A stretch of 60,600 bases of DNA from a virus (Duplodnaviria; Caudoviricetes): IMG/VR virus record IMGVR_UViG_3300024428_000003, positions 1 to 60,600 of that record. One strand, written 5' to 3'. The position numbers were made by a program, and so were the translations under genes. Of this stretch, positions 1 through 38,009 are shown piece by piece. Within the stretch, counting starts at the first letter, position 1. Each line of letters starts with the position of its first letter. The notes under the pieces are model-generated. The model did no database searches. It worked only from the letters and a program-made list of their open reading frames with translations, and was not told the origin of the DNA.

Positions 1-266
1 AAGCGGGGACGACGAGGATCTTACAGTACATAAATTCGCAGAGGAAGCAATGTATAAATACATAGCTCACGCGATTTTAGCAACGAGAATCAATACTCCG
101 GAATACTTAGTTAATAGATTTAAAAGAGAATTAGCTGCCGCGAGACGTAATACAAAAATAAGATTATCAAATATTAAAATAGAGGAAATTGCTCAAGTTA
201 TGCGCAATAAGTCCAAAATCATAAAACACTAGAATATGCCAGAATTAATTCACACGTTTACGTCAG
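1..266. repeat. Terminal direct repeat, copy 1 (assembly overlap of a circular or permuted genome)
   Basis: Matches 60335-60600 except at positions 37, 139 and 264. ORF 50..232 is the duplicated 3' end of 59655..60566. Confidence 0.97.
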
Positions 267-10186: not shown

Positions 10187-13100
10187 ATGGAAAAATTATA
10201 CGAGGCTTTAAATAAAAGCGGTAAATATACTAAGTCATTGGAAGACTTTAAAACTCAGTTTAGCTCTACGGCAGGGCAGGAAAAATTATATGGTGCTCTT
10301 AAATCTTCTGGTGATTATACTAAATCATTCAGCGATTTTAGCACACAATTTTTTAATACTGAAGAATCAGTAAAGACAAACGACTCTGCGGCTGCGGATC
10401 CAAGTGTGGAGTCAAACGCTACGGGATCCAATTGGGTAGATGGTTCGTCGGAGCAACTAGATAGTGGATTTGTATCAGAAAATAATAGAGGTAAAAGAGA
10501 AAAACTAATAGACGACGACTATAGTGGTACTATGATATCTAGGATGTTTGATGACGATCCTAACAATAGTTGGGCTGATGGCACAAGTGAATCTTTTAAG
10601 GATTCTTGGAAGGCCTGGGAAAAAAATAATCCTGTGTTCGCGAAAGCGGTTAAGGCGGACAAGAGCCTGACGCTAGGTAAGACGGCAAATATACCTGATG
10701 TTTTAGGCCCGCTTGCACGAGCTATATCAAACTGGGTGCGAAAAGACGACGCTGAAGACGAGGCCGCTATAAACAACAACCCTGAGCTTCATGAAAAATA
10801 CAGAGGGTATAGAAATGACGTTAGTATAGAAGAGCAGGCTGAGCAGTTTTATAACAGCAACGACTTAGACTTAAATGACACAAACTCTAATGCAGCATAC
10901 AATGATGATAAGCGCACTGATTTTATTGAAGAGTATTATATAAACAATCCTGAAAGCAAGGTGTTATTAGAAGAAGCTAACGTTAATGCTAGTGACTTCC
11001 AGGGCTTTTTGAATAGAAAAGGATATATAGACGAGTTCGATAAGCAAAAAGAAGCTGGAGCTTATGAGCAAGACGACTCTAATTTACCTGACAATTTAAC
11101 CATGCAGCAGGATCTTAAATCGTATTTTGACGAGTACTTAATTGAGACAGCTAGTAGAAATGTTGAAAGAGTAGTATTAGAAGAAATTAAAAATAACCCG
11201 TCTGAATACAAAAATATGAGTTTGCCTGAAGCGATGGGAGCTGCAGATGTTAAGCTAATGGAGGATCCTGAGAAGTACAATTACGGTACTCATTTGGATT
11301 TTAATAAATTAGAAGATTGGAATTCTAATAATTGGGATTCAATAAACAAATATAACGCTGAGCAAATTAAAAACATAGAAGATGCTCAACAAGCAAGAAT
11401 TGAAGAGACCGAAACCGGAGTTAAAACCGGTCTTTATGGCAGCGGAAGAACCTTAGTAGGCGCTTTAAATAAGCTAGGTGATGGTTTAGAAGACGTTTAC
11501 GATTTTGTAAAAATGGACGGTAAAGTGTTTGGTTGGGTGTTGCCAATTATTGGAGAAGGAAGACAAGCTAACGAATTTAGAGACTTAAGAGACAAGTCAA
11601 ACAGAAGAGCTTTAAGAGGAGAAGCTAATATAAATTACTTATATGCTGAAGGCAAGCAAGTTACTTTAAATGGCAAAGAGTATATAAAGCAAGCTAATGG
11701 TAGCATCAAGCAAATAACAAACGGATTTGATGTTTCTAAAACTATTTCAGATAAAGACAGAAAGGCTATAGATGATGCTATCGCAAATGGTGATTACATT
11801 TACGGAGCTGACTTTGATGGTTTTGGTGGTAGCATTATAGCAGGACAAACTATAGGTGAATTAGCAATACAGATTGTTGGACAAAAAGGCACAGGACTTT
11901 TAAGGAGAGCAGCTTCTTTAAAATATCTAGGTAAAGTTAAAAACTTATCCAAAGCTAGATTAACTAGAATGGAGTTAGGGTATAATAAAACTAAAGGAAT
12001 TAATTCTAGAGGTATTAATTACGGTGGAGTAACTGGGGGAGCAAAAGGAACTTGGGACACATTTGGCAAAAAGATACCTTTAGGTATAAGCAAAGGAATG
12101 GCTGATGCTGTAATATTCCAATCCGGGTATGGAGCAATGACTGGCTATAATCAAGCTAAGACAGCTGCACTGGATGCTGGTATGAGCATGGAAGAATCTG
12201 AAGCTATTGCTAATGAGGCAAGTTTAGGTATGGCTGCGCTATTTGCTTTAACAACACCAATAAACCCTAAGACTGGGCTTATAGATAAGATATTTAAAGG
12301 TACTGGAAAAAATTCCACAGCAAGCTTATTTAGACAGCTTATTAATGCTTCTGGTAATGCTGCAGGTGTAAGAAGAAACTTCGGAAGAATAGTAGCAGCT
12401 CCTCTGCAAACTAAATTAGCTAAATTTGGTGCGATTGTAGCAAGCGAAGGCGCTAAAGAAATGGTGCAGGAAAATGTACAACAAATAGGTGAAGCTGCTT
12501 TAAATAAAGTTTTGAACAAAGGTATTGGAAAAGATCTTTTAAAAGACACTTACACTTACGAAGACTTTGTAAATACTTCAGCATTGTCGTTTGCTGCTGG
12601 CGGATTTGCTGGTGGGGTTGGTAGCATATCAACTTTAACTGGCAGAAAAAACATAATGAATGACAGTGAAAAAGTTCAGAAGTTAAGGCAGCTAATACAA
12701 AACCCTGCTAAAGTTGAAAAGATATTTGATTCTTGGGTAAAAAACGGGGATATAACAAGAAAAGAAGCTGACGGCTTAAATCAAGAGATACAGAAGTTTG
12801 GTAGAAATATAAACAAAATGCCTAAGTTTCTATCAGATAGACGCATGTCAACAGAACTTTTAAAAGTCATAGACTCTCAGGAAAACATAAGTAAATTAGA
12901 AAAGCAAAGAAAGAACGCAATACCAGGAGAACAGGCCCTAATAGATGAAAAGCTTAAAGTTTTAAAAGAACAACAAACAAAATTGTTGGTAGACGCGCAA
13001 AACACATTAGATGCAGATAATAAAGTCTTCGAAGGCAAGTTTACAAAAAACACCGCTGCTGTTGTTAACTTTGCTAGAAAATTAGGATTTGGAGAAAGTA

Positions 13101-16100
13101 AGCTTCCAAGAATATTTGAAAACACCGACGCCTACGTAACCGCTATATATAGAGCTTTAAAAAGAAAAGAAAGATCTTATTTAAAAGCTGTAAAAGAAGG
13201 TAAGATAAAAGCTGACCCTGATTTTAAACCCCTAACAAAAGCTGAGGTTGCAAAACAAGCAGCTGAATCTGACGGAGTATATTTAGGGGCGGGTAGTCTT
13301 TTTATAAACAAAGAGATGGCTCGACAAACAGGTAAATGGACGGTTACTTCACATGAAATTATCCACCCTATACTTAACTCTTTAGTAGGTAGCTACTTAA
13401 ATCAGAAAGCAAACTACGATGACCTTATGAAGATTCTGCCTGCTAAGGTTAGAAGATCAATTAATAAAAAAATAGCGCAAACACAAGGTAAAGAAAAGCA
13501 AGCTATAGAGTTTTTAAACTATCTTTCTGATGCTGTTATTTCTGGTGAATTAGATTTTGACCCTTCTTTGTTTGATAAAATAAGATTGTGGTTTAACAAC
13601 ATAATAAGCAAGTTAGGCCTTAAGTCTGGTATTGAAAATCATGAAGACCTACATTTTGACGATGCCCGTGGTGTATACAACTGGCTTAAAGAATTTACAT
13701 CAGGTTTAAAAGAGGGCGGAGAAATAAGTGATAAAGCTGTAGAGGCTGTACAAAAAGCAGAAACAAAAGCAAATAGACTAGTTTCAGAAGATCCAGGATT
13801 AAGAGATCCTGAGAATGCAATGCAATTTTCTTCTAGTCAAGAAATATTAAATCTTGAAAATGCTTTAGATGATGCTTTAGATGCTTTTGCAGAAGACCCT
13901 AATAATCCTACTCTTGAAAAGAAAGTAGAAGAAGCGGAAAGATTACTAGAGGAAGCCGAAGAAAGGGTTGCTTCTGGTAGATCAGCTATTAAACAAGAAG
14001 CTAAACCTAAACCAAAGCCTAAAAAGAAAGTAGAGGCTAAGCCCGTTAGAACAACAGACTTAGGCCCTAGAGATCCAAAGTCTAAAAAGATTATGGACAC
14101 TTACAATGAAGGTATGGAGGGTGTCGAAAGAACAGAGTACAAGGCTAGTAAGCCATTACCAGCATCTTTAGAGAAAAAGCTAATACCTCTTTTTGAAGGG
14201 TATATTAATACAATAGTACAACAAAAGTTCAAGCAAGTTGGACCTGAAGCATTAGAGTTCCAAGATGCTTTGTCTATATTAAGAGCTGAGGTTGCTAGCG
14301 CAATACGTACATTTAATCCCGCTGTCAACAAAGATTTAGCAGGATATGTAAAAAGATACGGTGTACAAGCTAGGCAATCTTTAATGTTCGCAGACGCTAA
14401 CAAAGAATTTACTAGTGATATATCAGATGCTAAGGGAGTGGTCGACACTAATGATACACCGTCTATTGATCGTAGTGGCACAGTAGAAAGAGGCCAACGT
14501 ACTTTCGATGAGCTAGACATAGTAGACGAAGATTTAATAAACGATATTAGAACTGAGTTAGAAAAAGAAATAAGAATAAGAGTACAAAAAGGTACTTTGT
14601 CTGAAACTTTAGAAGTTAAGAAAGGTAGAGACACTTATATAGTTTCTTGGTTAGAAAACTATATACAAAAACAGTTATTTAAAAAGTTAATGAAAAAGCT
14701 AGGGGCTATAACAGGAGTATACCCTAATGCTGTAATCCCTGGATCTTATATAGACTTTCTAAACGATCCAAATACTTTTGATATAATAACTAAAGCTTTG
14801 CCAATTAAAAGCATTAAGAAGAGCTATGGCAAGTTATTTCCTCTTGAAAAAGTAGGTAGAGAAGTTACCCCAGAAGGCAACCCTGTATATAGAATTAAGA
14901 AAATAGAAAAAAGAGATTTCTTAACTTATTTTGTTAAAGGTAAAAAGTCTGCTGTACTAGAAAGACAGAAGCAATTATTTAGAGAAATACTTGAACCATT
15001 GGCAAAACAGGTTGTAGCAGACTATGCAACCCCCTCTAATTTAAGCGATTTAAAATCTATACAGGAATTGGCTCCAGAGAATTCTTTGGATGTTATTAAC
15101 GATATTGTTATAGAAGCACAATTAGCTAACCTAGAATCTAAGATAGATAGATACAAAGGCGAGAAAGAAGGTTTTGATATAATACAGTTTAGTAAAGAAT
15201 TAAACCAAAAAGACACTATAGATGTATTAGAGCAATTGGCTCAAAGAGAAAATATTACCGAGTTAAGAAAAGGTGTCTTGCAGGAGCTCATTAATAAAGT
15301 AACCAACGGACAAATCAGAACAACAAAAGACCTGATTAAAGCTGTTCATTCTATTGGAAAAGACCAATTAAGCACAAGAGCATATAGAGAATATGTTGTT
15401 AATGTATTATCTAAATTGCAATTTACACTAAGAACACCTAGTGTAGCTAACATAGTTAATGAAGGAGTAAAAGAATTTACAAAAATTTATAAGTACCAAC
15501 AAAAAATAATTGGTTATAATTATTCTACAACTAAGGTTAAGCGAGATTTTGACGAAGCTACAGATGATAAAAGCAAGGTTGAAGCTATAGTTAATTACTT
15601 AAATATAACAAGTAGATCCATACGTACCTTAGGGGTTGACGGTAATACAACTAATGAAAAAATATTTAATAATATATTAGTTCCTGCTTTTGGAGCGGAT
15701 CAATTATCAAAACTAAAAATAGATTTATTAAAAGAGTCTTATAAAGATAAAGACGGTAAAACTAGATTTAAAACCTACATTACAGTTAATAAAATAAAAC
15801 TAAAAGGATTAGTTCAAATAACAGAATTAAAATCAAACTTTGAAAATAATATTGATCAAGTTAACAAAGAGGCAATATTAGTAAGAAATTATTTAATTGA
15901 TGAAATTAACAGAGCCAAGCAAAATAACGAGGTAGATGCTGTAATTGGATTTATAAATTTATCGACAGCAGATCAAAGAGGAGCTGTTAGGAAACTAAGT
16001 TCTACTGGTATGTTTATGGTAAATACGCCAATAGCAAAATTAATACTGGAGCATGAAACTACTGCTAAGCAGCTAACAGAAGCTTTGGTTAAATATGCTA

Positions 16101-19033
16101 AAGGTGAAATTGATTTTAAAGTATTAACAAAAATACTCAACGGAGCTAAAATAAATTTAATACCTAAAAAATTAGATTTAATATTAAATAAACAAGGCTT
16201 AGACGGTATCGGGAGATACGAAACAGATCTTATTAAAGAAGAAATAAGCAAATTAAAAGCCAGCGGTAAATTAAAGTTTACTCAATATTCTAAAAGTAAG
16301 CTTGCTTTTGATCCATTTGATATGGCAGACGTAGTGACTATGTCGTTGTTTGGTGAAACTAAAGCCTTCAAGAACAGACAAGGATTTGAAAGAACTTATA
16401 AATATTTGAATCCATCCCAGCAAAAGCAGGTTCAGGAGGAAATGAAAAAACATAATTTATTTCAATTTAGCAAAACGCTTAATCAGGCTAAAGCTATGTC
16501 TAATAGAATAGACGCTCCTAATAAAGGTATAAGCGTATGGGATTTCGACGATACTTTAGCTACAACTAAGAGCAACGTTTTATATACATTGCCTAACGGT
16601 ACAAAAGGGAAAATAAATGCAACTGAATTTGCTTTACAAGCAGACCAATTAGCGGCACAGGGAGCTGAATTTGACTTTAGCGAGTTTAGCAAGGTTATGA
16701 ACGGTGCAAAAGGCCCAATGTTTGACAAAGCTGTTGCTCGTAATAAAAAGTTTGGTAATTCCAATGTCTACATTCTAACCGCTAGACCGGCTAATTCAAA
16801 ATATGCTATACATACGTTTCTTAAGGGAATCGGTTTAGATATTAAATTAGAAAATATATTTGGACTAGGTGATGGCACAGCTATTGCTAAAGCTAAGTGG
16901 GTAATTGGAAAAGTAGCTGAAGGTTACAATGATTTTTACTTTGCAGATGACGCATATAAAAACGTACAAGCGGTACAAGAAGTTTTAGAACAAGCAGACG
17001 TTAAGTCTAAAGTTCACCAAGCTAAAATACAATTTGCAAAAAGCTTAAATTCTGATTTTAATAATATTATACAAGATGTTACTGGAATAGATGCTGATAA
17101 AAAAATATCAGGTAATAAAGCAAAAATGCTTGGCAAAAAGAAAGGTAGGTTCAAATTCTTTTTACCACCCTCTGCAGAAGATTTTGCTGGGTTGTTATAC
17201 AAGCTAACTGGTAAAGGCAAAAAAGGTGAAGCGCATCAAGCTTGGTTTAAAAAATCATTGTTTGATCCATTTGCAAAAGGTATTAGAGAATTCGAAAGCT
17301 ATAAGCAAAACGCTACAGCTATTGTAAAGCAATTAAAGAAAAGCATAAAAAATATACCAGCTGGGTTAGGTAAGATTAATGAGACTGGTTTTACAAACGA
17401 AGCAGCAGTTAGAGTTTACTTGTGGACTAAAAATGGATTTGATATTCCAGACCTAACAGCAGAAGAGCAACAAGAATTGATAGAGGTAGTTAACAACAAC
17501 CCTAAATTGAAAAAATTTGCAGATCAATTAGATAAAGTGTTGGATGGTTATCCAGAGCCCCAAGATAGTTGGGTGGCTGGAACTATAACTACAGATGCTA
17601 TCAACATGATCAATACTGTAAAAAGAGCGGAGTTTTTAAAAGAGTGGCAAGAAAATGCAGACGCTATCTTTACAAAAGATAATATAAATAAACTAAGATC
17701 CCAATTTGGGGATAGCTATGTAGAAGCACTACAGGACATGCTCTACAGAATGAAAACAGGCCGTAACAGACCATCTGGCGCAAATAAGCTTACTAATCGC
17801 TTTATGAATTGGGTTAATGATTCTGTAGGTACAATAATGTTTTTCAATACTAGATCAGCATTGCTACAAACTTTGTCTATTGTAAACTTTATAAATTGGC
17901 ACGATAACAACCCTATACAAGCTGCAAAAGCTTTCGCAAACCAAAAACAATTTTGGAGTGATTTTTCAATGATATTTAATTCAGACTTTTTGAAACAAAG
18001 AAGATCTGGTTTAAAAAATGACGTTAATGCGGATGATATTGCTAGCGCTGCTGAAAATGAAACAAATAAAGCTAAAGCTGTGTTTGCCTCATTGTTAAAA
18101 GCAGGTTTCTTACCTACGCAGATAGCGGATAGTTTTGCAATCGCAATGGGTGGAGCTTCATTTATTAGAAATAGAATAAATATGTACGTGGCCGAGGGAA
18201 TGACTAAAGCAAAAGCTGAAGAGCAAGCTTTTTTAGATTTCCAAGAAATTGCAGAAGAAACACAGCAATCCTCAAGACCAGATAGAATATCGCAACAACA
18301 AGCGAGCCCATTAGGACGTATTGTATTAGCCTTTGCGAATACCCCTATGCAATACATGAGATTATCTAAAAAGGCTTTCTTGGATCTTAAAAACGGACGT
18401 GGAGACGCTAAAACAAATATAACCAAGATCATATATTATACAGCTGTGCAGAATATTATATTCTCTAGCTTACAAGCAGCTTTATTTGCGGTAGCATTTG
18501 ATGACGACGAAGAAAAAGCAAAAAACAAAGAAATCAGAGTCGCTAATTCTATGTTAGATTCCATCTTACGTGGAACTGGTATTTATGGAGCTATAGCTTC
18601 TACGATTAAGAATATAGTTGCGGAAATTTATACACAAAGTGAAAAAAGCCGACCTGATTATACGGTTGCTGCTCAAAGAGCTTTAAGCATATCTCCACCT
18701 ATAGATTCTAAGATGCGGAAGATAATGTCTGCAGCTAGAGCTTTTAGTTATAAAACTACTAGAGAGAAAATGGTTGGGTATGGTTTAGACAACCCCGCAT
18801 ATTATGCAGTGGGGCAAATACTTTCAGCAGGGTTTAATTTACCTGTTGATAGATTGATTAGAAAAGCTGACAACATAAGAGTAGCGCTTGATAATGAAAC
18901 TAAGATGTGGCAATCAATAGCACTAACATTAGGCTACAGCCAATGGGATCTAGGACTGATTGAAAGCGGAAAAAATAAAAAGAGTAATAAAAAAGGCTGG
19001 CACAATGTAAAGCGCGGCAGCTGGAAAGACTAA
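10187..19033 (+). CDS. Giant ejection (polyvalent) protein with zincin HExxH, sigma-70 region-2-like and HAD phosphatase-like domains
   Basis: 2948 aa. HEIIH at 13352-13366; sigma r2-like segment ~14168-14383; HAD motifs DFDDTL (16541), ILTARP and FADD; helical C-terminus. Confidence 0.75.
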   Translation: MEKLYEALNKSGKYTKSLEDFKTQFSSTAGQEKLYGALKSSGDYTKSFSDFSTQFFNTEESVKTNDSAAADPSVESNATGSNWVDGSSEQLDSGFVSENNRGKREKLIDDDYSGTMISRMFDDDPNNSWADGTSESFKDSWKAWEKNNPVFAKAVKADKSLTLGKTANIPDVLGPLARAISNWVRKDDAEDEAAINNNPELHEKYRGYRNDVSIEEQAEQFYNSNDLDLNDTNSNAAYNDDKRTDFIEEYYINNPESKVLLEEANVNASDFQGFLNRKGYIDEFDKQKEAGAYEQDDSNLPDNLTMQQDLKSYFDEYLIETASRNVERVVLEEIKNNPSEYKNMSLPEAMGAADVKLMEDPEKYNYGTHLDFNKLEDWNSNNWDSINKYNAEQIKNIEDAQQARIEETETGVKTGLYGSGRTLVGALNKLGDGLEDVYDFVKMDGKVFGWVLPIIGEGRQANEFRDLRDKSNRRALRGEANINYLYAEGKQVTLNGKEYIKQANGSIKQITNGFDVSKTISDKDRKAIDDAIANGDYIYGADFDGFGGSIIAGQTIGELAIQIVGQKGTGLLRRAASLKYLGKVKNLSKARLTRMELGYNKTKGINSRGINYGGVTGGAKGTWDTFGKKIPLGISKGMADAVIFQSGYGAMTGYNQAKTAALDAGMSMEESEAIANEASLGMAALFALTTPINPKTGLIDKIFKGTGKNSTASLFRQLINASGNAAGVRRNFGRIVAAPLQTKLAKFGAIVASEGAKEMVQENVQQIGEAALNKVLNKGIGKDLLKDTYTYEDFVNTSALSFAAGGFAGGVGSISTLTGRKNIMNDSEKVQKLRQLIQNPAKVEKIFDSWVKNGDITRKEADGLNQEIQKFGRNINKMPKFLSDRRMSTELLKVIDSQENISKLEKQRKNAIPGEQALIDEKLKVLKEQQTKLLVDAQNTLDADNKVFEGKFTKNTAAVVNFARKLGFGESKLPRIFENTDAYVTAIYRALKRKERSYLKAVKEGKIKADPDFKPLTKAEVAKQAAESDGVYLGAGSLFINKEMARQTGKWTVTSHEIIHPILNSLVGSYLNQKANYDDLMKILPAKVRRSINKKIAQTQGKEKQAIEFLNYLSDAVISGELDFDPSLFDKIRLWFNNIISKLGLKSGIENHEDLHFDDARGVYNWLKEFTSGLKEGGEISDKAVEAVQKAETKANRLVSEDPGLRDPENAMQFSSSQEILNLENALDDALDAFAEDPNNPTLEKKVEEAERLLEEAEERVASGRSAIKQEAKPKPKPKKKVEAKPVRTTDLGPRDPKSKKIMDTYNEGMEGVERTEYKASKPLPASLEKKLIPLFEGYINTIVQQKFKQVGPEALEFQDALSILRAEVASAIRTFNPAVNKDLAGYVKRYGVQARQSLMFADANKEFTSDISDAKGVVDTNDTPSIDRSGTVERGQRTFDELDIVDEDLINDIRTELEKEIRIRVQKGTLSETLEVKKGRDTYIVSWLENYIQKQLFKKLMKKLGAITGVYPNAVIPGSYIDFLNDPNTFDIITKALPIKSIKKSYGKLFPLEKVGREVTPEGNPVYRIKKIEKRDFLTYFVKGKKSAVLERQKQLFREILEPLAKQVVADYATPSNLSDLKSIQELAPENSLDVINDIVIEAQLANLESKIDRYKGEKEGFDIIQFSKELNQKDTIDVLEQLAQRENITELRKGVLQELINKVTNGQIRTTKDLIKAVHSIGKDQLSTRAYREYVVNVLSKLQFTLRTPSVANIVNEGVKEFTKIYKYQQKIIGYNYSTTKVKRDFDEATDDKSKVEAIVNYLNITSRSIRTLGVDGNTTNEKIFNNILVPAFGADQLSKLKIDLLKESYKDKDGKTRFKTYITVNKIKLKGLVQITELKSNFENNIDQVNKEAILVRNYLIDEINRAKQNNEVDAVIGFINLSTADQRGAVRKLSSTGMFMVNTPIAKLILEHETTAKQLTEALVKYAKGEIDFKVLTKILNGAKINLIPKKLDLILNKQGLDGIGRYETDLIKEEISKLKASGKLKFTQYSKSKLAFDPFDMADVVTMSLFGETKAFKNRQGFERTYKYLNPSQQKQVQEEMKKHNLFQFSKTLNQAKAMSNRIDAPNKGISVWDFDDTLATTKSNVLYTLPNGTKGKINATEFALQADQLAAQGAEFDFSEFSKVMNGAKGPMFDKAVARNKKFGNSNVYILTARPANSKYAIHTFLKGIGLDIKLENIFGLGDGTAIAKAKWVIGKVAEGYNDFYFADDAYKNVQAVQEVLEQADVKSKVHQAKIQFAKSLNSDFNNIIQDVTGIDADKKISGNKAKMLGKKKGRFKFFLPPSAEDFAGLLYKLTGKGKKGEAHQAWFKKSLFDPFAKGIREFESYKQNATAIVKQLKKSIKNIPAGLGKINETGFTNEAAVRVYLWTKNGFDIPDLTAEEQQELIEVVNNNPKLKKFADQLDKVLDGYPEPQDSWVAGTITTDAINMINTVKRAEFLKEWQENADAIFTKDNINKLRSQFGDSYVEALQDMLYRMKTGRNRPSGANKLTNRFMNWVNDSVGTIMFFNTRSALLQTLSIVNFINWHDNNPIQAAKAFANQKQFWSDFSMIFNSDFLKQRRSGLKNDVNADDIASAAENETNKAKAVFASLLKAGFLPTQIADSFAIAMGGASFIRNRINMYVAEGMTKAKAEEQAFLDFQEIAEETQQSSRPDRISQQQASPLGRIVLAFANTPMQYMRLSKKAFLDLKNGRGDAKTNITKIIYYTAVQNIIFSSLQAALFAVAFDDDEEKAKNKEIRVANSMLDSILRGTGIYGAIASTIKNIVAEIYTQSEKSRPDYTVAAQRALSISPPIDSKMRKIMSAARAFSYKTTREKMVGYGLDNPAYYAVGQILSAGFNLPVDRLIRKADNIRVALDNETKMWQSIALTLGYSQWDLGLIESGKNKKSNKKGWHNVKRGSWKD

Positions 19034-19566: not shown

Positions 19567-19722
19567 ATGAGCTTACAAGAAATTAAGTTATACGCTATAA
19601 ACGGCAGCACGCTAGGAGTCACAACCTTTACACAGATAGAGGATTGGTTAAAAATAATATTATTAGTAGTAACTATAGGTTATACCATTGCCAAGTGGTC
19701 AAAAGTAAAAGAAGAGGATTAA
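19567..19722 (+). CDS. Putative small holin (51 aa, not in ORF track)
   Basis: MSLQEIKLYAINGSTLGVTTFTQIEDWLKIILLVVTIGYTIAKWSKVKEED. Has a TM helix; its stop overlaps the endolysin ATG (TAATG). Confidence 0.6.
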   Translation: MSLQEIKLYAINGSTLGVTTFTQIEDWLKIILLVVTIGYTIAKWSKVKEED

Positions 19723-20075
19723 TGAGGTATTTTAAGTTAGAAGAATTTGATTCGCCTGATGAAAAAGGCAGCGGCAGTAAAATGAGTGAAGAGCTTTTAA
19801 GTATGCTTGATATAGCTCGTAAAAAGTTTGGTAAACCTATAAAAATAAACTCAGGGTATAGAACAGCCGCACACAATAAAAAGGTAGGTGGAAAACCTTC
19901 TTCTTCCCACCTCAAGGGTTTAGCTGCAGATATATCTTGCACTAATTCTATAGATAGATTTAAACTAGAGGGTATATTGAGAGAAGTGGGGTTTAATAGA
20001 TTAGGTGTAGCTGGTTCATTTATTCACGTAGACATAGACAAAAACAAATCACCTAATGTAATGTGGGTATATTAA
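19722..20075 (+). CDS. Endolysin, peptidase M15A family
   Basis: SGYRT..HN..VGG...SSHLKGLAADI...FIHVD motifs. Likely start is ATG 19722. Confidence 0.9.
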   Translation: MRYFKLEEFDSPDEKGSGSKMSEELLSMLDIARKKFGKPIKINSGYRTAAHNKKVGGKPSSSHLKGLAADISCTNSIDRFKLEGILREVGFNRLGVAGSFIHVDIDKNKSPNVMWVY

Positions 20076-20315: not shown

Positions 20316-22034
20316 CTATCCATCACAAGCTAAACAATCTTCACTCATAGCTTGCTGAGCTATATCACCGCGCAAAACAGATTCAGTACGTGTATAGTAT
20401 AAAGTTTTAACGCCTTTTTTCCACGCATCAAAATGAACTTTATTAAGCCACTTAGGAGTAGCTTCGCTAGGGAATGCTAAATTTAAACTAACTGATTGAT
20501 CTATGTACTGCTGCCTTAGTCCGGCCTGGGCAATGAGTTCCAGCTGATTGATTTCTTTAAATGTTTTAAAAACTTCTTTAACTGGTATGTCATGCCCCAT
20601 AGTAGTATTATCCAAAGCATCGATACCCTGTATACTACCTCCGTCTTCCAATATCTTATTCCATGTCTCACTTGTATTTAATTTATGTTTTTTTAATAGT
20701 TTAACTAATGTAGGGTTTTTTCTAATAAAAGTACCTTTAGCAGATTGTTCTGTAAAAACATTAGCAGCCCAAGGTTCTATTCCTGGCGAAACATTCCCGC
20801 CAAGCTTTGAATTACTAACAGTGGGAGCAATAGCGCGCAGGTGAGTATTGCGCATACCAGTACCAACACACCACAAAGGCTCGCCATAAATCTCAGCAAG
20901 GGCCATAGAAGCTCTTTCACTTTCAATTTTAATTTGACTAAAAATTTTCCTAGTTTCAAACTGAGCAAGTAAACCTTCAAAAGGTATTCCCTTTTCTTGG
21001 AGATACGTGTGCCATCCGAGTACACCCAACCCAAGCGCTCGTCCTTTTGTAGCAGAACGAACGGCATTTTCAAAACCTCTAAGTCCTTTTGCTCTTTGAA
21101 TAAATTCCTCCATAACGCCATCAAGAAACCATGTGGCGTCGTGTATAAGGTTTGTTCCTTTCCATTCATCATATTTAGCTAAGTTTAATGACGACAAACA
21201 GCATACAAAGCTATGATTCTCGTCTGTGTGTAATGTTATTTCGCTACATATATTAGTCATGTGAACCTTTAACCCATTGCCTTTATATGCTGCTGGATTC
21301 GCTTTGTTAACATTTCCTTTAAACATAATATACGGTTCTCCAGTTGCTTTTCGCTTTCTAAGTAGTTTACTCCATCTAGTTCTAGCATTCGCATCTCCTT
21401 GTTCAAGGCGTCGCATAAACTTATCACCCACAACTGCGCATTGATGTAGGTTAAGTGATTGTCTGTTAACATCTCCTTTAGGTTCTCTAATTTCAAGCCA
21501 CTCTTCAAAATCATCGTGTTCAATATTGATGTTAACCGATGCTGCTCCTCTTCTGACTGATCCTTGATTAGTCGCGAGTATTGTTGAGTCATATATTTTA
21601 CAAAAGGGTACAACTCCGTCTGATGTTCCATTACCTGTTATTGTTGCGCCAGCGGGTCTAATTTGATTAACTCCGATACCAACTCCACCGCCGTGCTTAG
21701 CGAGTAGCATCATCTCTAAATTCTTTTGACCAATATCCTGTATCGAATCAGCAACATCAATACCGAAACAGCTAATAGGTAAGCCCCTATCAGTCCCAGT
21801 GTTTGAGAGTACCGGACTAGCAAGGCACAACCAGCCATTCCAGATATAATTAAAAAATACTTCAGCCATTTCAGGCTTATATAACCTACGAGCAACTGTT
21901 TTAGCGACTCTTTGGTATGCTTCTCGTGGTGTTTCTCCGTCGAATAAATATCCCCCGGATATAGTCTTCTTGTATACGTCGTTGTTACCCCACGTAGGGT
22001 AATCTTCACCTTTTTTCCAGTTTTCATTCCACAT
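20316..22034 (-). CDS. nrdA: Ribonucleotide reductase class Ia alpha subunit (short form)
   Basis: PISCF, GGGVG, TNICSEI, AIAPTVSNS, IDQSVSLN, KTLYY and C-terminal CLACDG. Confidence 0.95.
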   Translation of the reverse strand: MWNENWKKGEDYPTWGNNDVYKKTISGGYLFDGETPREAYQRVAKTVARRLYKPEMAEVFFNYIWNGWLCLASPVLSNTGTDRGLPISCFGIDVADSIQDIGQKNLEMMLLAKHGGGVGIGVNQIRPAGATITGNGTSDGVVPFCKIYDSTILATNQGSVRRGAASVNINIEHDDFEEWLEIREPKGDVNRQSLNLHQCAVVGDKFMRRLEQGDANARTRWSKLLRKRKATGEPYIMFKGNVNKANPAAYKGNGLKVHMTNICSEITLHTDENHSFVCCLSSLNLAKYDEWKGTNLIHDATWFLDGVMEEFIQRAKGLRGFENAVRSATKGRALGLGVLGWHTYLQEKGIPFEGLLAQFETRKIFSQIKIESERASMALAEIYGEPLWCVGTGMRNTHLRAIAPTVSNSKLGGNVSPGIEPWAANVFTEQSAKGTFIRKNPTLVKLLKKHKLNTSETWNKILEDGGSIQGIDALDNTTMGHDIPVKEVFKTFKEINQLELIAQAGLRQQYIDQSVSLNLAFPSEATPKWLNKVHFDAWKKGVKTLYYTRTESVLRGDIAQQAMSEDCLACDG

Positions 22035-22297
22035 TATATTAAATGATTTATCCAGGCAATAAGCCCATTAATATTTAAAGCTACTAGATTCCATTGTTTT
22101 CTAGAGGCTGTTTGCAATACTACTAAAATAAACCCCACAACATATAGTTGAGGGTCTATAGTCCATTGAGCAGCGATTAAAAAACCACTGCCCATATATC
22201 CTGCTCTAGTCGCTAATCTCTTCCAAGGGCTTAGCCTCTTCTGTCTTACTAGACTCTTTAGAAATTTTTGCTTTAAGACTTTCAATTGCATCTGCAT
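22034..22297 (-). CDS. Small membrane protein (start uncertain)
   Basis: Hydrophobic helices; stop abuts the nrdA start. Confidence 0.5.
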   Translation of the reverse strand: MQMQLKVLKQKFLKSLVRQKRLSPWKRLATRAGYMGSGFLIAAQWTIDPQLYVVGFILVVLQTASRKQWNLVALNINGLIAWINHLI

Positions 22298-22436
22298 AAT
22301 CGTCCATTTGTTTTATTGTTTCTAATGTACCCACAGCTAGATCTTTTAACTGGGGTACCTCTCTCATTAAAAACTGAACAGCTTGTCCAAGCGTTTCAAT
22401 TTTATTTTTCATTTCTATTAAAGTTTGTTCTTTCAT
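22206..22436 (-). CDS. Hypothetical protein
   Basis: 76 aa coiled-coil, directly downstream of nrdB. Confidence 0.6.
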   Translation of the reverse strand: MKEQTLIEMKNKIETLGQAVQFLMREVPQLKDLAVGTLETIKQMDDYADAIESLKAKISKESSKTEEAKPLEEISD

Positions 22437-22448
22437 TTTTTTTTATAA

Positions 22449-23417
22449 TTACCAAATATTTTCAAAATCTTCTCCTTCTCCTGCCTTCGAATAATCTGTC
22501 GAACGAATAGCGAAAAAATCAGTATGGGTAACGCCCCCGGTAAGATGGTAAAACCAATCAAGATTGCTCGCTGCCGAGGTGTCATACGCGAAGTAGTTTC
22601 CAAGGTCGACATAGCCGAGCTCAACAAGTTTTTCATTTGCTCTCTTTTTTATAAAGTGTTTTAGATCGTTTGATTTGATACCTTCAATGTCGCCCATTTC
22701 AAACATCTTGTCTATATACTTTGTTTCTAACGTAACCATGGTTTCGGCAGCTTTAATTATATCTTCTCGACATAAGTTCAGCAATTGATTGTTTTCACTG
22801 CACATATCTCGAAACAATTTACATCCCATTTTACTATGCAAAGATTCGTCCCTAACTGACCACTTCATTTGTTGACCTATGCCTTTCAATAAATTTCTTA
22901 ATTGAAAGCTATATAGTACAGCAAAAGCAGAATAAAGGCTAACCCCTTCAGCAAATGCAGAAAACACAGCAAGACTTTTACCAATACCAATAGGATCGTC
23001 CCCCTTATAAGCAACCAAATTATCAAACCTCGCTGCTGTATTAGGCTCGTGTAAAAACGCTTCATAATCCTCTAGTTTTAATGTCTCATTCAAGTAGCTG
23101 TACGCTACAGCGTGTACGGTCTCTTGCGAGCCGAACATCATCGCCATCTGCCTGATTTCGTGTTTAGGAAACCACGATACGACGTTCTGGGTCCAATAAT
23201 CTGAAACGGCGCATTCGGTTTGCGCGAATCCAAGAAGTATGTTCCCGACGAGGTGCTTTTCTTTTTCGTTAAGTTTTTCATTCCAATCTTTTATGTCGCT
23301 CTGCATAGAGATTTCAGTATGTAACCAAAATGCTTGAGCTTGTTTTAACCAACCTTCTGTATAATATTCAGGGTATTCAAATGGCTTGTACGCAATGCGC
23401 TCATCAAATAATCCCAT
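22449..23417 (-). CDS. nrdB: Ribonucleotide reductase class Ia beta subunit
   Basis: QETVHAVAYS, EGVSLYSAF and RDESLH di-iron ligands with the radical Tyr. Confidence 0.95.
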   Translation of the reverse strand: MGLFDERIAYKPFEYPEYYTEGWLKQAQAFWLHTEISMQSDIKDWNEKLNEKEKHLVGNILLGFAQTECAVSDYWTQNVVSWFPKHEIRQMAMMFGSQETVHAVAYSYLNETLKLEDYEAFLHEPNTAARFDNLVAYKGDDPIGIGKSLAVFSAFAEGVSLYSAFAVLYSFQLRNLLKGIGQQMKWSVRDESLHSKMGCKLFRDMCSENNQLLNLCREDIIKAAETMVTLETKYIDKMFEMGDIEGIKSNDLKHFIKKRANEKLVELGYVDLGNYFAYDTSAASNLDWFYHLTGGVTHTDFFAIRSTDYSKAGEGEDFENIW

Positions 23418-23569
23418 TAGTTATCAATTTCTAAAGCTAAATCTATTAAGGGCAGGTATAATACGTGTGTTGAAAAATCTTTTTCGTGATAACTTCTAAC
23501 TCCAAATAATATACCAGGGTAAAACCCTATAGTTAATGTCCAACTTCTTTCGTTTTTATTTTCCTCCAT
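23417..23569 (-). CDS. Small hypothetical protein (50 aa, not in ORF track)
   Basis: MEENKNERSWTLTIGFYPGILFG...; stop overlaps the nrdB ATG. Confidence 0.5.
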   Translation of the reverse strand: MEENKNERSWTLTIGFYPGILFGVRSYHEKDFSTHVLYLPLIDLALEIDN

Positions 23570-23689
23570 AAACTTTTATATTGTATCTATCCATTAATTC
23601 TTTTAATTCTTTAAATTTAATCTTCCCGCGAACTTCCCAGCTCCATTTAACAAACTTATCAATCTGGCGTTCAGCGTACTTTTGTTTGG

Positions 23690-24148
23690 CTATCCTTTTC
23701 GCTTGTTGAGGATTAGCCTTATTGTCTCGTCGCATTCCTTTTGATTTTGTGGTTTATATAATGTAATCGAAGGGAATTGATTCATAACCAATCGCTTGAA
23801 TAACTTCCAACGCATAGGAAATGATTCGTTAGCTCTACCTTTTGTTTCTATAATAAAATCCTCTCCAATAAAATCCGGTGTATATTTAATAGGTAAAATA
23901 CGTTTGCATCCTCTATTCTTATAATCACCTTTACCATTAGATTGTCTTTCGTAAACTTCATTATCAAAATGAAATCCACTTAACAAAACAAAAGTTTCTC
24001 CTTCGTACTTAGCCTTGATCTTTTCTTTTTTAAGAGCCATATACATATACCTCTCAAGACCTGAAGCGAAGTTGATCCCATCATAAGTAACTTTTTTACT
24101 TACAACAGGACCTCTTTTCTTTTTTCTTTTATAAGGTAGTCTCTTCAT
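23690..24148 (-). CDS. PD-(D/E)XK endonuclease, T7 endonuclease I / Holliday junction resolvase-like
   Basis: FASGLE...YTPDF...IIETKGR. Confidence 0.8.
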   Translation of the reverse strand: MKRLPYKRKKKRGPVVSKKVTYDGINFASGLERYMYMALKKEKIKAKYEGETFVLLSGFHFDNEVYERQSNGKGDYKNRGCKRILPIKYTPDFIGEDFIIETKGRANESFPMRWKLFKRLVMNQFPSITLYKPQNQKECDETIRLILNKRKG

Positions 24149-24392
24149 GAACTTCGATGTTTTTTAATAATGCTTCTTGCATCTCTTCAGTGCTTGATTC
24201 TTTTAGCTTTTGCATGTATAGCACAGCATCCATTAGCTCTTCTTGAAGATGATTTATCCAAGCAAACAAATTTGATTTATCGTCGTTAAGAGTTACGCCA
24301 TACTTTGCAAAGCCTACATCTGATCTTGATACAAACTTATCAACTACACGTTCAACAACTGGGTCTCTGAATTCTATTTGTTTTTTTCTCAT
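24129..24392 (-). CDS. Hypothetical protein, possibly all-alpha NTP pyrophosphatase-like
   Basis: GFAKYGVTL...HLQEELMDAVLY pattern. Confidence 0.5.
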   Translation of the reverse strand: MRKKQIEFRDPVVERVVDKFVSRSDVGFAKYGVTLNDDKSNLFAWINHLQEELMDAVLYMQKLKESSTEEMQEALLKNIEVHEETTL

Positions 24393-25150
24393 AATGTTTC
24401 TTTTACAAATGTTCCGTTAATCATTTTACCTTTACGCCTAGCTATTACATTGTAAGCGGTATCAATACAGTCTTCTATCTTTAATCCTTCTAGCTCGGCT
24501 AGATTAGTTAAGACTACAGCAATATCTCCAATAGCATCAACGATCTCCGCTTTGTCATTGTTTAATAAAGCTTTAGCTAGCTCACCTGCTTCTTCCATAA
24601 GTTTTACATACTGCGTGGTAGAATTACCTTTAGCGTATATACCTTTATCTTTAGCCCAAAACCTTATAAGATCAAATCTATCTGGTATTTCATTTGGATT
24701 GTGTACAGGATTAAAAAAGGCCTCATAAAAAGCCTTGTTATATATATAGCTTCGATTGTTATTATACATCGAGGTTTTAGCATTCTGCATTATCCAGGGT
24801 ATATGTTCTTTTTGTAATTTAAACTTGAACTCTGGTGTTTCCCATTCTAATCCTAAGTTATCTGAAAGGTTGCCCTTTAGTTTATTTAGGGGTACAGGAA
24901 ACGTACTTGTTTGTTCTGTTGGATTTATTTTCATATTTGATTTGAATAAATTTTTATATAGTGTCCGATCTCTTTTATAGCCATAAGACTTTTGAAGTTC
25001 TATTTCCTTGTTAGATATAAAATCAATATCATCACTTGTAAATAAAACTTCGTATTCTCCTGGAGCATAACCTTGTTGTTCCGTAACTCTCTTATTAAGA
25101 TTACGTGTAACTCCAATTTTTTTACCAGGAATGTGATAAATGTTGTACAT
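24389..25150 (-). CDS. MazG-like NTP pyrophosphohydrolase with N-terminal GIY-YIG-like region
   Basis: C-terminal KLMEEAGELA...IVDAIGDIAVVL; N-terminal YNIYHI...KIGVTRNLNKRV. Confidence 0.75.
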   Translation of the reverse strand: MYNIYHIPGKKIGVTRNLNKRVTEQQGYAPGEYEVLFTSDDIDFISNKEIELQKSYGYKRDRTLYKNLFKSNMKINPTEQTSTFPVPLNKLKGNLSDNLGLEWETPEFKFKLQKEHIPWIMQNAKTSMYNNNRSYIYNKAFYEAFFNPVHNPNEIPDRFDLIRFWAKDKGIYAKGNSTTQYVKLMEEAGELAKALLNNDKAEIVDAIGDIAVVLTNLAELEGLKIEDCIDTAYNVIARRKGKMINGTFVKETL

Positions 25151-25158
25151 AATTTTTG

Positions 25159-25983
25159 TTATTTACCAACACTTAACTCTGCTTTGATTGCAGGATAAGG
25201 ATTGTATTTAATTAATTTAATATCGGTAGCTTGAGGTATATTTACGCCTCCTAGAACATTAGCATTGACTCCTCTTTCTAATTGAAGCTTAGGTAATACT
25301 CGCTTAGGTCTTAATCTATATTGCTCTGCTTGTTTCAAATGATTGTTATACAAATGACAATCACCTAATTGACCAATCAACTGACCTGCTTTTAAACCTG
25401 TATCTTTTACTAACAATTCTAGCAATAAGCCGTACATAGTAATATCATAAGGTAAACCTAAGAATACATCAGCGGATCTTTGTTGCCACATTAAATCCAT
25501 TGTACCGTTATTAATATATACTTGAAAAGCATAATGACACGGAGGTAAGACCATATCTTTCATCTCGTGTGGAGCCCATGCGCTAACCATAAGACGTCTA
25601 GAATCTGGATTAGTATTGATGCTATACACAAGATTATAAAGCTGATCTACGCCGTTAAAATTACGCCACTGTTTTCCATATACAGGACCCAATGTTTCAT
25701 CTGTTCTACCCGAGCGTTCGTAATCTGGTCGCCAGTACTTAACGCCGTTATCTTCTAAATACTTAAGATCAGTTCTACCTTGTAATATCCACAGCAGCTC
25801 CGTTCTTGCTGCATTAAAGCTTATCTTCTTTCCTGTAAGTATAGGGAAGCCCAATGACATATCGTGTCTAATCGTTCTTCCGAAGACAGACTTCGTCCCA
25901 GTCCCTGTTCTATCCGACTTATCCAATCCTCTGTCGAGTATTTCTGATAATAATTCTTTGTATTCATTTTCTATATTTATCAT
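25159..25983 (-). CDS. thyA: Thymidylate synthase
   Basis: DRTGTGT, LGPVYGKQWR, LPPCH, QRSADVFLGLPY, GDCHLY. Confidence 0.96.
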   Translation of the reverse strand: MINIENEYKELLSEILDRGLDKSDRTGTGTKSVFGRTIRHDMSLGFPILTGKKISFNAARTELLWILQGRTDLKYLEDNGVKYWRPDYERSGRTDETLGPVYGKQWRNFNGVDQLYNLVYSINTNPDSRRLMVSAWAPHEMKDMVLPPCHYAFQVYINNGTMDLMWQQRSADVFLGLPYDITMYGLLLELLVKDTGLKAGQLIGQLGDCHLYNNHLKQAEQYRLRPKRVLPKLQLERGVNANVLGGVNIPQATDIKLIKYNPYPAIKAELSVGK

Positions 25984-26239
25984 AATAATATTTACACATT
26001 TTATAATATTCCGGCCAAATTGTATTTCTACAATACTTACTGGGTGATAAGTTAGGCTTTTCCCATTTTGTATAAGCTCCTAAACTAATAGCTATATGCC
26101 AGTGATCAGTATCATTTTGTATACCATAAGGTGATATTCTTATATTGTTTCTAACACAATACATATACCACTTATCTTCTTCTTCACTTCTTGCATAAGG
26201 CGGCATAGGTTTAGTACGCTTTCCGTATATACTAGGCAT
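25964..26239 (-). CDS. Hypothetical protein
   Basis: 91 aa, between the primase-helicase and thyA. Confidence 0.6.
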   Translation of the reverse strand: MPSIYGKRTKPMPPYARSEEEDKWYMYCVRNNIRISPYGIQNDTDHWHIAISLGAYTKWEKPNLSPSKYCRNTIWPEYYKMCKYYYDKYRK

Positions 26240-27970
26240 CTATTCCCAAGGCATTTTTTCACCAGCTAAATTAACTTGCTCGTGTGGGATAAAACAACCG
26301 GACTTTGGTTCCCATTTAAAATGAGCTTCAGCGCCGTTCTCTCCTAAGTTTTGAAACTTAATCTTTAATACCTTGGCTTTAACAGTTTTTTGTTCATAAT
26401 CTCTATGAATTAATATACCGTGATAAGATGCATCATACCATTCACCTCCACCTTTTATGTTATACATTGTTGGTTCGTCAATCTTTCCTGTTGATTGATT
26501 CTTGTACATTTTAGTAGGGTGTGCTACAATAAATACTAATACATCATACTTCTTAGCAAACATTTCTATTTTGCTTAAGTATTCCATAGTATACCTATTA
26601 ACATCTTCCGTCTTACAATCTACATCTCTTACTTTATTAAATGGATCTATAACTAAACATTTAATACCTTTACGTTTAACTAACTCAGCACCCTTTTTAA
26701 GTACAGATTCTAAAGTATAACGCTCCATGTCAATGTGAAAGTAATTACTATTACAGTGGTCCGCTATTTGATTCCATTTCTCTCCCCCAATATCTGTCTT
26801 AGTTGGCATACCTTGCCAAGTCTTTCTCATTAACTTATGAGCATGTAGATATGTTGGTACGTTTTCCGGAGAAGCGAAAGCTGTTTTCCAACCATAGTTC
26901 GCATTATATCCGACAACCATCTGATCCACGAAATCCGACTTTCCTGAAGAGGGTATGCCAGTGACAGTAATAAACTGACCAGTGTACGTCGAAAATATAT
27001 TATCAAAGTTTTCCAAACCAATTTGAAAGCCAGGCTTGAAACCATTACGAACAAAGTCCGTGACTTCATCTTCGATATCCCTGAACGTTGTAACATTCTC
27101 CAGTGGTACTGGCTTTGATCTTGAAATACGCTCTGATAATTTTTCTTTTCCATACTTTAATAAATATTCGTTAGCGTCCTTACAATCATCAAACGTAGCT
27201 ATATAACATACTTCTGATCCTAATCTACGTATTAATTCAGTTTGTAATGCCTGTCCAGCTTCGTCTGAATCTACGGCTAAAATAACTTTTTCCTTGTCTT
27301 CGAAATAATCTATGCAATTGTCTAAGTAATCTAAATTGTTAGTATTAAGCGTTGCTCCATTAGGAACTGATATTGCGTTTGTAATACCTGCTTCGTGCAA
27401 AGCTAACACATCCATTTCGCCTTCAACTATGACACAATATTCATAGCCTACTATGCTGTCTATATTATAGAATACTTTTTCAGCACCCTTATATAATTTA
27501 AAGTTCTTTCTTCCATCTCGGTATTTAACATTAGTTAATTCGCCGCCCATAAAATAATTGAACTTTATTACATTCTCGGTTTTACCGGTCTGAGGCATAT
27601 ATTCAGGGCCCTCCCCAATCTTTAGATCGAAGAGAGTTTCCTGAGATATACCACGAGTTTTAAACCACTCAATTACTTGATCGCGTATAGCAAATGACTT
27701 ATCAGGATATTCTGGATCTGGCTGTTCAGGTTTAATATATACCTTTTCAGCTTTACCTTTACGTTGATAAGAATGTAATTGAAATGATGTATTACAATTA
27801 TGACAAGTACCGAGACCCCGTTCCCAATCATAAGACGCACACTTTGCCTTTTGATTCTTGGGTTTTCTATCGTGAGAACATACAGGGCATGTGCCTTGCT
27901 TCTTTCCCTCTTCAAGCTTATGTATATTGAACTCGTCAATAACAAATCCATTGATCTCTAATGTCTGCAT
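26240..27970 (-). CDS. Primase-helicase (T7 gp4 / Twinkle-like)
   Basis: Zn finger CPVC...CHNC, TOPRIM EGEMD/DSD, SF4 Walker A GIPSSGKS, LVIDP, IVAHP. Confidence 0.92.
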   Translation of the reverse strand: MQTLEINGFVIDEFNIHKLEEGKKQGTCPVCSHDRKPKNQKAKCASYDWERGLGTCHNCNTSFQLHSYQRKGKAEKVYIKPEQPDPEYPDKSFAIRDQVIEWFKTRGISQETLFDLKIGEGPEYMPQTGKTENVIKFNYFMGGELTNVKYRDGRKNFKLYKGAEKVFYNIDSIVGYEYCVIVEGEMDVLALHEAGITNAISVPNGATLNTNNLDYLDNCIDYFEDKEKVILAVDSDEAGQALQTELIRRLGSEVCYIATFDDCKDANEYLLKYGKEKLSERISRSKPVPLENVTTFRDIEDEVTDFVRNGFKPGFQIGLENFDNIFSTYTGQFITVTGIPSSGKSDFVDQMVVGYNANYGWKTAFASPENVPTYLHAHKLMRKTWQGMPTKTDIGGEKWNQIADHCNSNYFHIDMERYTLESVLKKGAELVKRKGIKCLVIDPFNKVRDVDCKTEDVNRYTMEYLSKIEMFAKKYDVLVFIVAHPTKMYKNQSTGKIDEPTMYNIKGGGEWYDASYHGILIHRDYEQKTVKAKVLKIKFQNLGENGAEAHFKWEPKSGCFIPHEQVNLAGEKMPWE

Positions 27971-37963: not shown

Positions 37964-38009
37964 GTGACGTTAGGTTGTTAAGTTAAATATAGTAACACGC
38001 TATTGTCGC
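37964..38009. promoter_or_regulatory. Bipartite inverted-repeat site, copy B
   Basis: GTGACGTTAGG-N24-GCTATTGTCGC. Confidence 0.6.

Follow-up and report, generated by a model that had tools for sequence, protein, structure and literature searches.

The window analysed here, the 60,600 nucleotides of the complete 60.6-kb virus record IMGVR_UViG_3300024428_000003 (Duplodnaviria; Caudoviricetes), carries a giant modular open reading frame, P0001, in which a short peptide of the form Q-[FY]-[SA]-[KS] recurs at the joints between domains. Our data suggest that P0001 may be a virion protein of the polyvalent kind known from phages, and that the recurring peptide is a candidate code for self-cleavage, which would be read by a metallopeptidase embedded in the same chain; we give this reading a probability of roughly 0.5. 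A sequence-only reading of this DNA had already proposed a self-processing polyprotein, and the proposal holds in part: the cassette joints are conserved and fall at domain boundaries, and the HExxH+E domain is conserved as well, but the zincin fold expected of that domain was not recovered. Homologues were gathered by a word-seeded search with residues 1000-2350, which returned 994 proteins (1621-5159 residues) at E <= 0.001 among 7998 scored candidates; the homologue counts given below rest on the 120 of these 994 that were listed, one of which is P0001 itself, leaving 119. The parts of P0001 are as follows.

10187..19033, plus strand: giant modular open reading frame P0001, 2948 residues, which holds all five motifs and HEIIH
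10187..10456, plus strand: conserved N-terminal segment of ~90 residues with two 28-residue repeats; 83-84 of the 119 listed homologues align over residues 1-75
10193..10354, plus strand: the two tandem 28-residue repeats (residues 3-56), consensus KLYxALxxxGxYTKSxxDFxxQF
10457..13216, plus strand: variable N-terminal region, residues 91-1010; 9 of the 119 align over residues 130-725
13217..13804, plus strand: zincin-like (HExxH + Glu) domain, residues 1011-1206
13352-13366, plus strand: H1056, E1057 and H1060 of the HExxH
13508-13510, plus strand: E1108, the downstream Glu
13823..13834, plus strand: junction motif 1, QFSS, at Q1213, ~55 residues past the zincin-like domain
13823..15184, plus strand: module A, the conserved core, residues 1213-1666; 106-108 of the 119 align over residues 1351-1650
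14072-14404, plus strand: segment resembling sigma-factor domain 2, residues 1296-1406
15185..15196, plus strand: junction motif 2, QFSK, at Q1667
15185..16282, plus strand: swappable cargo module 3, residues 1667-2032 (366 residues), predicted to be well folded
16283..16294, plus strand: junction motif 3, QYSK, at Q2033
16283..16462, plus strand: spacer module of 60 residues, 2033-2092; when present, always upstream of the HAD module
16463..16474, plus strand: junction motif 4, QFSK, at Q2093
16463..17029, plus strand: HAD phosphatase module, residues 2093-2281
17030..17041, plus strand: junction motif 5, QFAK, at Q2282
17030..19030, plus strand: C-terminal domain, residues 2282-2948 (667 residues), mostly helical and highly conserved

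The five junction motifs lie exactly where the sequence-only reading had placed them (Q1213 at nucleotide 13823, Q1667 at 15185, Q2033 at 16283, Q2093 at 16463 and Q2282 at 17030), and its HEIIH at H1056 likewise starts at nucleotide 13352. A sixth copy of Q[FY][SA][KS] is found at Q24 (nucleotide 10256), within the N-terminal 28-residue tandem repeat; because the repeat consensus in homologues reads QFG at this place, it is probably a different element and we do not count it as a joint. These six copies compare with a mean of 0.24 in 2000 shuffles of the protein, none of which reached six (the maximum was three). Outside P0001 the pattern occurs only twice in the open frames of at least 80 residues in all six frames, as GQYSS at nucleotide 6895 and as IQYAK at nucleotide 49177. 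It is not present in the other virion proteins of the genome, for which reason we set aside a general prohead-protease site as an explanation.

Conservation of the motif across homologues is borne out: at least one strict copy is present in 116 of the 119, the exceptions being P0087, P0102 and P0110. Of 231 distinct instances, 220 have F, 218 have S and 216 have K, 151 have I, L or V at position -1 and 189 have T, S or N at position +4; their consensus is [ILV]-Q-F-S-K-[TSN]-[LVI]-[NS]. In an alignment of 41 sequences Q1667 and F1668 of motif 2 are invariant (41/41), and in motif 1 S1215 is invariant and the Gln nearly so. Of 117 homologues, 89 carry a strict motif at the joint before the C-terminal domain and a further 17 a degenerate one. 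Related words persist in relatives from IMG/VR whose C-terminal domain is only 45-55% identical: L009 has KRFSRS, VKFSRS and TKFSRS, and L015 has HFSKR, SFSRA, MFSRK and EFSRK, the last of these twice. In those relatives, too, the word is placed at the joint from the HAD module to the C-terminal domain and shortly past the HExxH domain, and the first motif trails the HExxH domain even in distant relatives.

Over 93 diverse representatives of at least 1500 residues, FS[KR] is observed 234 times where 86 are expected. The flavour of the motif shifts among phage lineages, from Q-FSK to K-FSR and x-FSRK, and within one protein the residue before F tends to agree (0.218 compared with 0.123 by chance; 0/1000 shuffles reach this value in the 69 relatives with at least two sites). 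Such concordance is in keeping with a single reader that has evolved together with its sites, and, along with the restriction of the motif to P0001 in this genome, it gives indirect support to the idea that all joints are recognised by a common reader.

When the homologues are cut at the motif, pieces of fixed length result. There are 58 pieces of the HAD module, with a median of 189 residues, and 38 spacer pieces of 55-60 residues, and the pieces of the C-terminal domain measure 663-688 residues. One slot takes three alternative modules of ~356, 337 and 323-343 residues (22, 13 and 13 pieces); module 3 falls in the first class, whose 22 segments span 355-541 residues with a median of 356, and other homologues carry the ~337 or the 323-343 class instead. 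The pieces were clustered by single linkage, which lumped the conserved parts in one large class, and only the small classes are informative. The ends of BLAST segments against P0001 (n = 327) gather at the same places, with 50 ends at residues 1670-1689, 28 starts at 2020-2039 and 35 starts at 2270-2289. The most direct view of an exchange comes from the nearly identical relatives P0003 and P0004. P0003 is 95-100% identical to P0001 from residue 1001 to K1670 of IIQFSK, falls to 10-25% identity across the next ~360 residues and returns to 80-100% from the following motif; P0004 diverges at K1670 like P0003, and its identity resumes exactly at NLFQFSK of motif 4. The cargo thus varies exactly between the motifs, which is the outcome in favour of the sequence-only reading in the comparison of homologues that it had proposed, and the suggestion that the motifs are module-swapping points is well founded. 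From these comparisons the motif is almost certainly the joint at which cassettes exchange between phages.

In six homologues (P0024, P0028-P0031 and P0033) the 60-residue spacer is missing and two QFSK copies stand 11 residues apart, at residues 1555 and 1566 in P0024; it looks as if the body of the spacer had been deleted with both flanking joints retained. Some homologues keep only 11-18 residues between two motif copies. Proteins of 630-790 residues that correspond to a stand-alone C-terminal domain were considered as natural splits and rejected, given that the nearest IMG/VR loci are uninterrupted giant open reading frames of 1983-3126 residues; they are best read as gene calls made from internal starts or at contig ends. 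Internal translation starts were likewise rejected as a source of separate modules, as only joint 1 has a Met just ahead of it.

The coincidence of the recombination joints with the motif would also be expected if the motif had no function in the protein and were merely a short shared sequence where cassettes recombine. We regard this as very unlikely. The core is only 12 nucleotides long and its codons differ among the copies: across the six in P0001 the Gln is CAG or CAA and the third position is AGC, TCT, AGT or GCA. The peptide is also kept in the relatives with only 45-55% identity in the C-terminal domain, and residues that are nearly invariant call for selection on the peptide. Because the codons differ while the word persists in divergent relatives, selection would act on the peptide and not on the DNA; judged from these sequence comparisons, the joint peptide is under protein-level selection.

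The motifs had further been described as lying at apparent domain boundaries, and this is borne out in two AlphaFold models, model 1 covering residues 1000-1675 (mean predicted local distance difference test score, pLDDT, 59) and model 2 residues 1660-2859 (mean 69). The motifs are found within or next to stretches of pLDDT below 50-65, flanked by domains predicted at 59-91. Q1213 (in a segment at model residues 199-219) and Q1667 (low in both models) fall within segments of pLDDT below 50, Q2033 is at the edge of such a segment, which follows directly at residues 2034-2044, and Q2282 comes directly after another, at residues 2275-2281. From Q1667 to Q2033, the fold of module 3 is predicted with confidence, at pLDDT 59-91 in blocks of ten residues.

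The candidate for the reader of the motif is the zincin-like domain. H1056, E1057, H1060 and E1108 are invariant in 41/41 family members and again in 14/14 divergent sequences of 11-85% identity, and the HExxH and E1108 are both on predicted helices. HEIIH therefore belongs to a conserved HExxH+E domain, that is, one with a gluzincin-type signature in which a downstream Glu is the third ligand, and it is to this signature alone that the suggested zincin membership can be traced. Searching with a profile of this domain brings up 1339 clusters (at 50% identity) at E <= 0.001, and of the 150 listed the majority are 2000-3700 residues long. A second HExxH within the zincin-like domain, HEDLH at residue 1152 (13640..13654), was rejected; only P0001 and L003 of the 14 aligned sequences have it and it is probably fortuitous. 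No match at E <= 10 was found to MPTase-PolyVal (PF18818), LPD38 (PF18857) or LPD39 (PF18858), where the PF18857 test is weak in that control genomes gave no match either.

In the mechanism that we favour, P0001 has a conserved chassis that consists of an N-terminal tag, the zincin-like HExxH+E domain, the sigma-2-like module and the C-terminal helical domain, and exchangeable cassettes occupy a slot that lies after the sigma-like module and before the C-terminal domain. Here the slot contains the 366-residue module, the 60-residue spacer and a Pnkp-type HAD phosphatase, and all joints carry [ILV]-Q-F-S-K-[TSN]. The joint peptide would be both the recognition and the cleavage site of the embedded metallopeptidase, and a cut before the invariant Phe, between Q and FSK, would place this residue in the S1' pocket, an arrangement that is usual for zincins, as in thermolysin-like enzymes. 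Cleavage at all joints would give products of ~135, 52, 42, 7, 21 and 75 kDa. The modules may be released in the capsid or after ejection, release after injection being a step that we infer.

A number of observations weigh against a peptidase that cuts its own chain at these joints. Over the zincin-like domain the AlphaFold pLDDT is only 31-75; no zincin is present among the listed Foldseek or VIA matches or in a profile search of the PDB, and there is no Pfam peptidase match in P0001 or in 31 relatives. A recognisable motif is missing at the joint ahead of the C-terminal domain in 11 of 117 homologues, FS[KR] is missing altogether in 14 of the 93 diverse relatives, and among 31 IMG/VR relatives nine have at most two [FY]S[KR] sites. 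The concordance of the residue before F could partly reflect cassettes that were duplicated together with their joints. No naturally split genes with the modules as separate proteins were found. Finally, two of the five motifs, Q2093 and Q2282, are predicted inside helices with pLDDT of ~62-64 and are not clearly disordered.

Helical motifs speak instead for a docking or linker peptide that is not cleaved and binds one common partner, such as a host factor, a chaperone, the portal or the inside of the capsid; the zincin-like domain would then act on host targets or peptidoglycan and not on its own chain. Protein-level conservation and concordance within a protein suit any common reader, not just a protease; the virion RNA polymerase of N4 and ArdC, which have MPTase domains, are transferred unprocessed (PMC5512222), and a peptidoglycan role has been proposed for the metallopeptidase of phi24B gp47 (10.64898/2026.04.10.717836). 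We nevertheless think docking unlikely. There is no apparent partner, and P0001 alone in the genome carries the motif; a peptide that marks each cassette joint, and that stands twice within 11 residues where a spacer was lost, is more typical of cut sites than of binding sites, and peptidoglycan peptidases do not usually bear the HExxH+E signature.

The relatives with few sites bear on a further alternative, namely that the joints are cut by another protease, of host or phage, and that the embedded HExxH domain has a different job. The motif and the HExxH domain are linked by co-occurrence only, eight of the nine relatives with no more than two sites keep the HExxH, and L030, which has no HExxH, has two sites. 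The genome, however, offers little in the way of another enzyme: a scan against PHROGs that took in 49 of the 73 open reading frames of at least 50 residues named no prohead protease or other protease except the endolysin-type peptidase at 19644..20075. A lineage-specific flavour of the motif also fits a co-evolving reader encoded by the phage better than a conserved host enzyme, and in our judgement a separate protease is decidedly unlikely. Self-cleavage by the embedded domain remains the reading that we prefer.

Known domains give little guidance to the parts of P0001. The whole protein and seven pieces of it had no match above cut-off in Pfam or PHROGs, phmmer and two profiles gave no meaningful match in the PDB sequences, tblastn with P0001 and two of its parts found no match in 50,697 GenBank phage records, and Foldseek against the PDB with both multi-domain models returned none at E <= 0.001; no Pfam domain was found in 18 homologues. 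At the N-terminus the number of listed homologues that align falls to 9 of 119 beyond about residue 130, and the repeats are kept though the next 900 residues are not conserved; the repeat segment may be an anchoring or packaging tag. The variable region behind it includes a Gly/Ala-rich stretch at about residues 540-840 (G+A 0.26).

The first two motifs had been said to bracket a sigma-like segment, and they do: a predicted fold like that of sigma-factor domain 2 occupies residues 1296-1406 within the module of residues 1213-1666. Its best structural match is SigB (8x6g_H; Z 8.8, root-mean-square deviation (rmsd) 2.9, 91 residues), followed by SigI6 (Z 8.3), sigmaS (8.0), sigma32 (7.9) and domain 2 of SigA (7.8). 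Seven of the eight best VIA matches are sigma factors or pro-sigma (Z 7.6-8.8, rmsd ~3, 91-97 residues), the eighth being 7ye1_F from a GcrA transcription complex, with the caution that Z below ~13 for helical bundles can reflect a common arrangement. No Sigma70 Pfam model matched P0001 at E <= 10, and an hhalign comparison of the family profile with the sigma factor that the phage encodes (29945..30700) gave a probability of 0.1. For sigma domain 4, which reads the -35 element, the VIA list has no entry for model residues 449-655, a part that was barely tested. In the model, then, module A resembles sigma-factor domain 2.

The last two motifs bracket the HAD domain as closely as had been claimed, with the HAD core at residues 2111-2274 between Q2093 and Q2282. 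HAD motifs I-IV (DxDxT, S/T, K, DD) are all present and well kept among aligned residues (D2119 in 34/37, D2121 in 36/37, T2123 in 34/37, T2198 in 36/37, K2235 in 37/38, D2254 in 36/40 and D2255 in 34/40); the Pfam HAD model PF12710 reaches 15.1 bits (E 0.031), below its cut-off of 27. In structure the module comes closest to the 3'-phosphatase domains of T4 Pnkp and Pnkp1, namely 5uj0_B (Z 9.9, rmsd 2.6, 120/142 residues), 4xrp_A (Z 9.5) and 1ltq_A (Z 9.4), with many generic HADs following at Z 6.6-7.7 and 3pct_C at a probability of 0.99 in Foldseek. As modelled, the HAD module appears closest to the T4 Pnkp 3'-phosphatase. A P-loop kinase of the AAA_33/Zeta_toxin type is found in L005 (residues 2600-2746), P0124 (2568-2710) and P0193 (2581-2728); in L005 it stands directly ahead of the HAD-homologous region, which is the Pnkp arrangement and makes a full Pnkp-like kinase-phosphatase cargo.

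Module 3 had no significant fold match and the ESM Atlas gave no usable match for it; a bromodomain-like bundle for its N-terminal four-helix part (Z 6.6-7) was too weak to use. The C-terminal domain has long runs of nearly invariant columns and one hydrophobic stretch at residues 2753-2771. In Foldseek against BFVD its model matches a structural protein of Gundel_1 (E 2.8e-8) and ART-PolyVal, LPD and MuF-C proteins (E 1.7e-7 to 2.3e-3), at 10-13% identity and with low TM-scores, and in the ESM Atlas its nearest annotated neighbours are LPD38/LPD39 clusters, which we take as a lead only. As for the four cargo effectors that the sequence-only reading had inferred, the sigma-like core and the 60-residue spacer are not obviously effectors.

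An extension of our preferred reading can be put forward tentatively, as a possibility that we hold with some doubt. Each lineage would have a private cleavage code (Q-F-S-K here; K/R-F-S-R or x-F-S-R-K in relatives) read by its in-built protease, and cassettes flanked by this code would be pluggable and released on infection. One of the released products would be a sigma-like factor, delivered with the virion, that redirects the RNA polymerase of the host ahead of all phage gene expression; another would be a Pnkp-type phosphatase that heals ends and so forestalls defences based on tRNA cleavage.

The surroundings of P0001 in the window are those of a late-gene region, in the order terminase, portal, capsid-type and virion structural proteins, and this run continues across the ends of the record. 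The neighbouring features are these.

236..6067: virion structural protein of 1943 residues, followed by three open reading frames with no assigned function and then by the giant open reading frame at 10187..19033
19644..20075: endolysin gene (endolysin-type peptidase), following the giant open reading frame
29945..30700, minus strand: separate sigma factor of 251 residues (phrog_351, E 2.7e-22)

P0001 is the final gene of the virion/structural module. From this position, and from the label 'structural protein' given to gp101 of Cellulophaga phage phi38:1 and gp074 of Tenacibaculum phage Gundel_1, P0001 is probably carried in the virion. The 1943-residue protein shares ~30% identity with structural proteins from podophages of Cellulophaga, Flavobacterium and Tenacibaculum (87 records), and because of this resemblance the host is probably a marine member of the Flavobacteriia and the source probably an uncultured podophage of that group. 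As the phage has its own 251-residue sigma factor, it relies on the host RNA polymerase.

Several other features of the window were seen in passing. GroEL and GroES genes lie at 43007..44563 and 44563..44820 (plus strand), and a second GroES-like gene at 49765..50355 (plus strand) stands immediately ahead of the terminase, where phi38:1 also has a GroES-like gene. G+C is 0.41-0.42 in 38001..42000 and ~0.35 elsewhere; a strand switch falls in this zone, its open reading frames are few, short and have no PHROG match, and it may be an early or regulatory region. A nucleotide-metabolism and replication block on the minus strand (20316..27970) includes the large and small subunits of a class I ribonucleotide reductase, thymidylate synthase, a MazG-like pyrophosphatase and a primase-helicase. 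A search for tRNA genes gave none.

The closest precedent for our preferred reading is the class of polyvalent proteins defined by Iyer, Burroughs, Anand, de Souza and Aravind in 2017, in which the MPTase was proposed to process the protein 'into individual functional units' (PMC5512222). DdrB of P1 was cited there as a case of processing, and the vRNAP of N4 and ArdC as cases in which none takes place (PMC5512222). P0001 is like these proteins in being a giant multidomain protein (2948 residues) with a HExxH domain and mosaic, exchangeable cargo, and in a C-terminal domain that matches BFVD models of ART-PolyVal, LPD and MuF-C proteins; it is unlike them in having no Pfam match to MPTase-PolyVal, LPD38 or LPD39. 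The main text of that paper uses 'linker' and 'recognition site' nowhere, has three uses of 'cleavage' on other matters and gives no cut-site motif (PMC5512222); 'sigma' is likewise not used in the main text, and the three occurrences of 'had' shown there are the English word (PMC5512222). Because 'sigma' and HAD are missing from that main text, the sigma-like and Pnkp-type HAD cargo appear to be additions.

A second comparison is with gp47 of phi24B, a protein of 2811 residues with LPD5, LPD1, LPD38 and a MuF-C metallopeptidase, which is in the virion proteome, is invisible in the cryo-EM reconstruction and has been proposed to be a capsid-packaged ejection protein (10.64898/2026.04.10.717836). 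P0001 shares with it the character of a giant podovirus protein with a metallopeptidase-like domain, a likeness by description; unlike gp47, P0001 does not match Pfam LPD38, and the available part of the gp47 report describes no junction motif.

The cultured Flavobacteriia phages phi38:1 and Gundel_1 have a virion module related to that of this record. In phi38:1 the same genome position as that of P0001 is taken by gp101 (1691 residues), which differs in that it lacks HExxH, contains a single FS[KR] and is not similar to P0001. Gundel_1 gp074 (2482 residues) has one HExxH and shares the C-terminal domain of P0001 (BLAST E 3e-7), but has only two FS[KRQ] sites and no obvious recurring word.

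The prohead proteases of T4 (gp21), phiKZ and SPN3US offer a parallel for the motif itself, as there a short consensus peptide marks the cuts in capsid-interior proteins. In those systems a separate protease cuts many proteins, whereas here the motif is confined to one protein with its own protease-like domain. The HAD module, in turn, is like T4 Pnkp and bacterial Pnkp1 in matching their 3'-phosphatase domains at Z 9.4-9.9, and unlike Pnkp in that the copy in P0001 has no kinase domain, generic HADs being only 2 Z units lower.

Full-text literature searches found no published description of such a cleavage motif. The family around P0001 is large (1339 clusters) and has no Pfam domain at all, and the motif could be of practical use as a guide for dividing such giant 'dark' proteins into their domains. 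Among the cargo, the sigma-like module and the Pnkp-like phosphatase hint at two functions early in infection, and the shuffling of cargo is seen as whole cassettes swapped at the motif between nearly identical phages. Self-cutting of polyvalent proteins was proposed in 2017 with no cut site in the main text, whereas the P0001 family supplies exact candidate sites, a candidate catalytic residue (E1057) and predicted fragment sizes, which make the idea directly testable.

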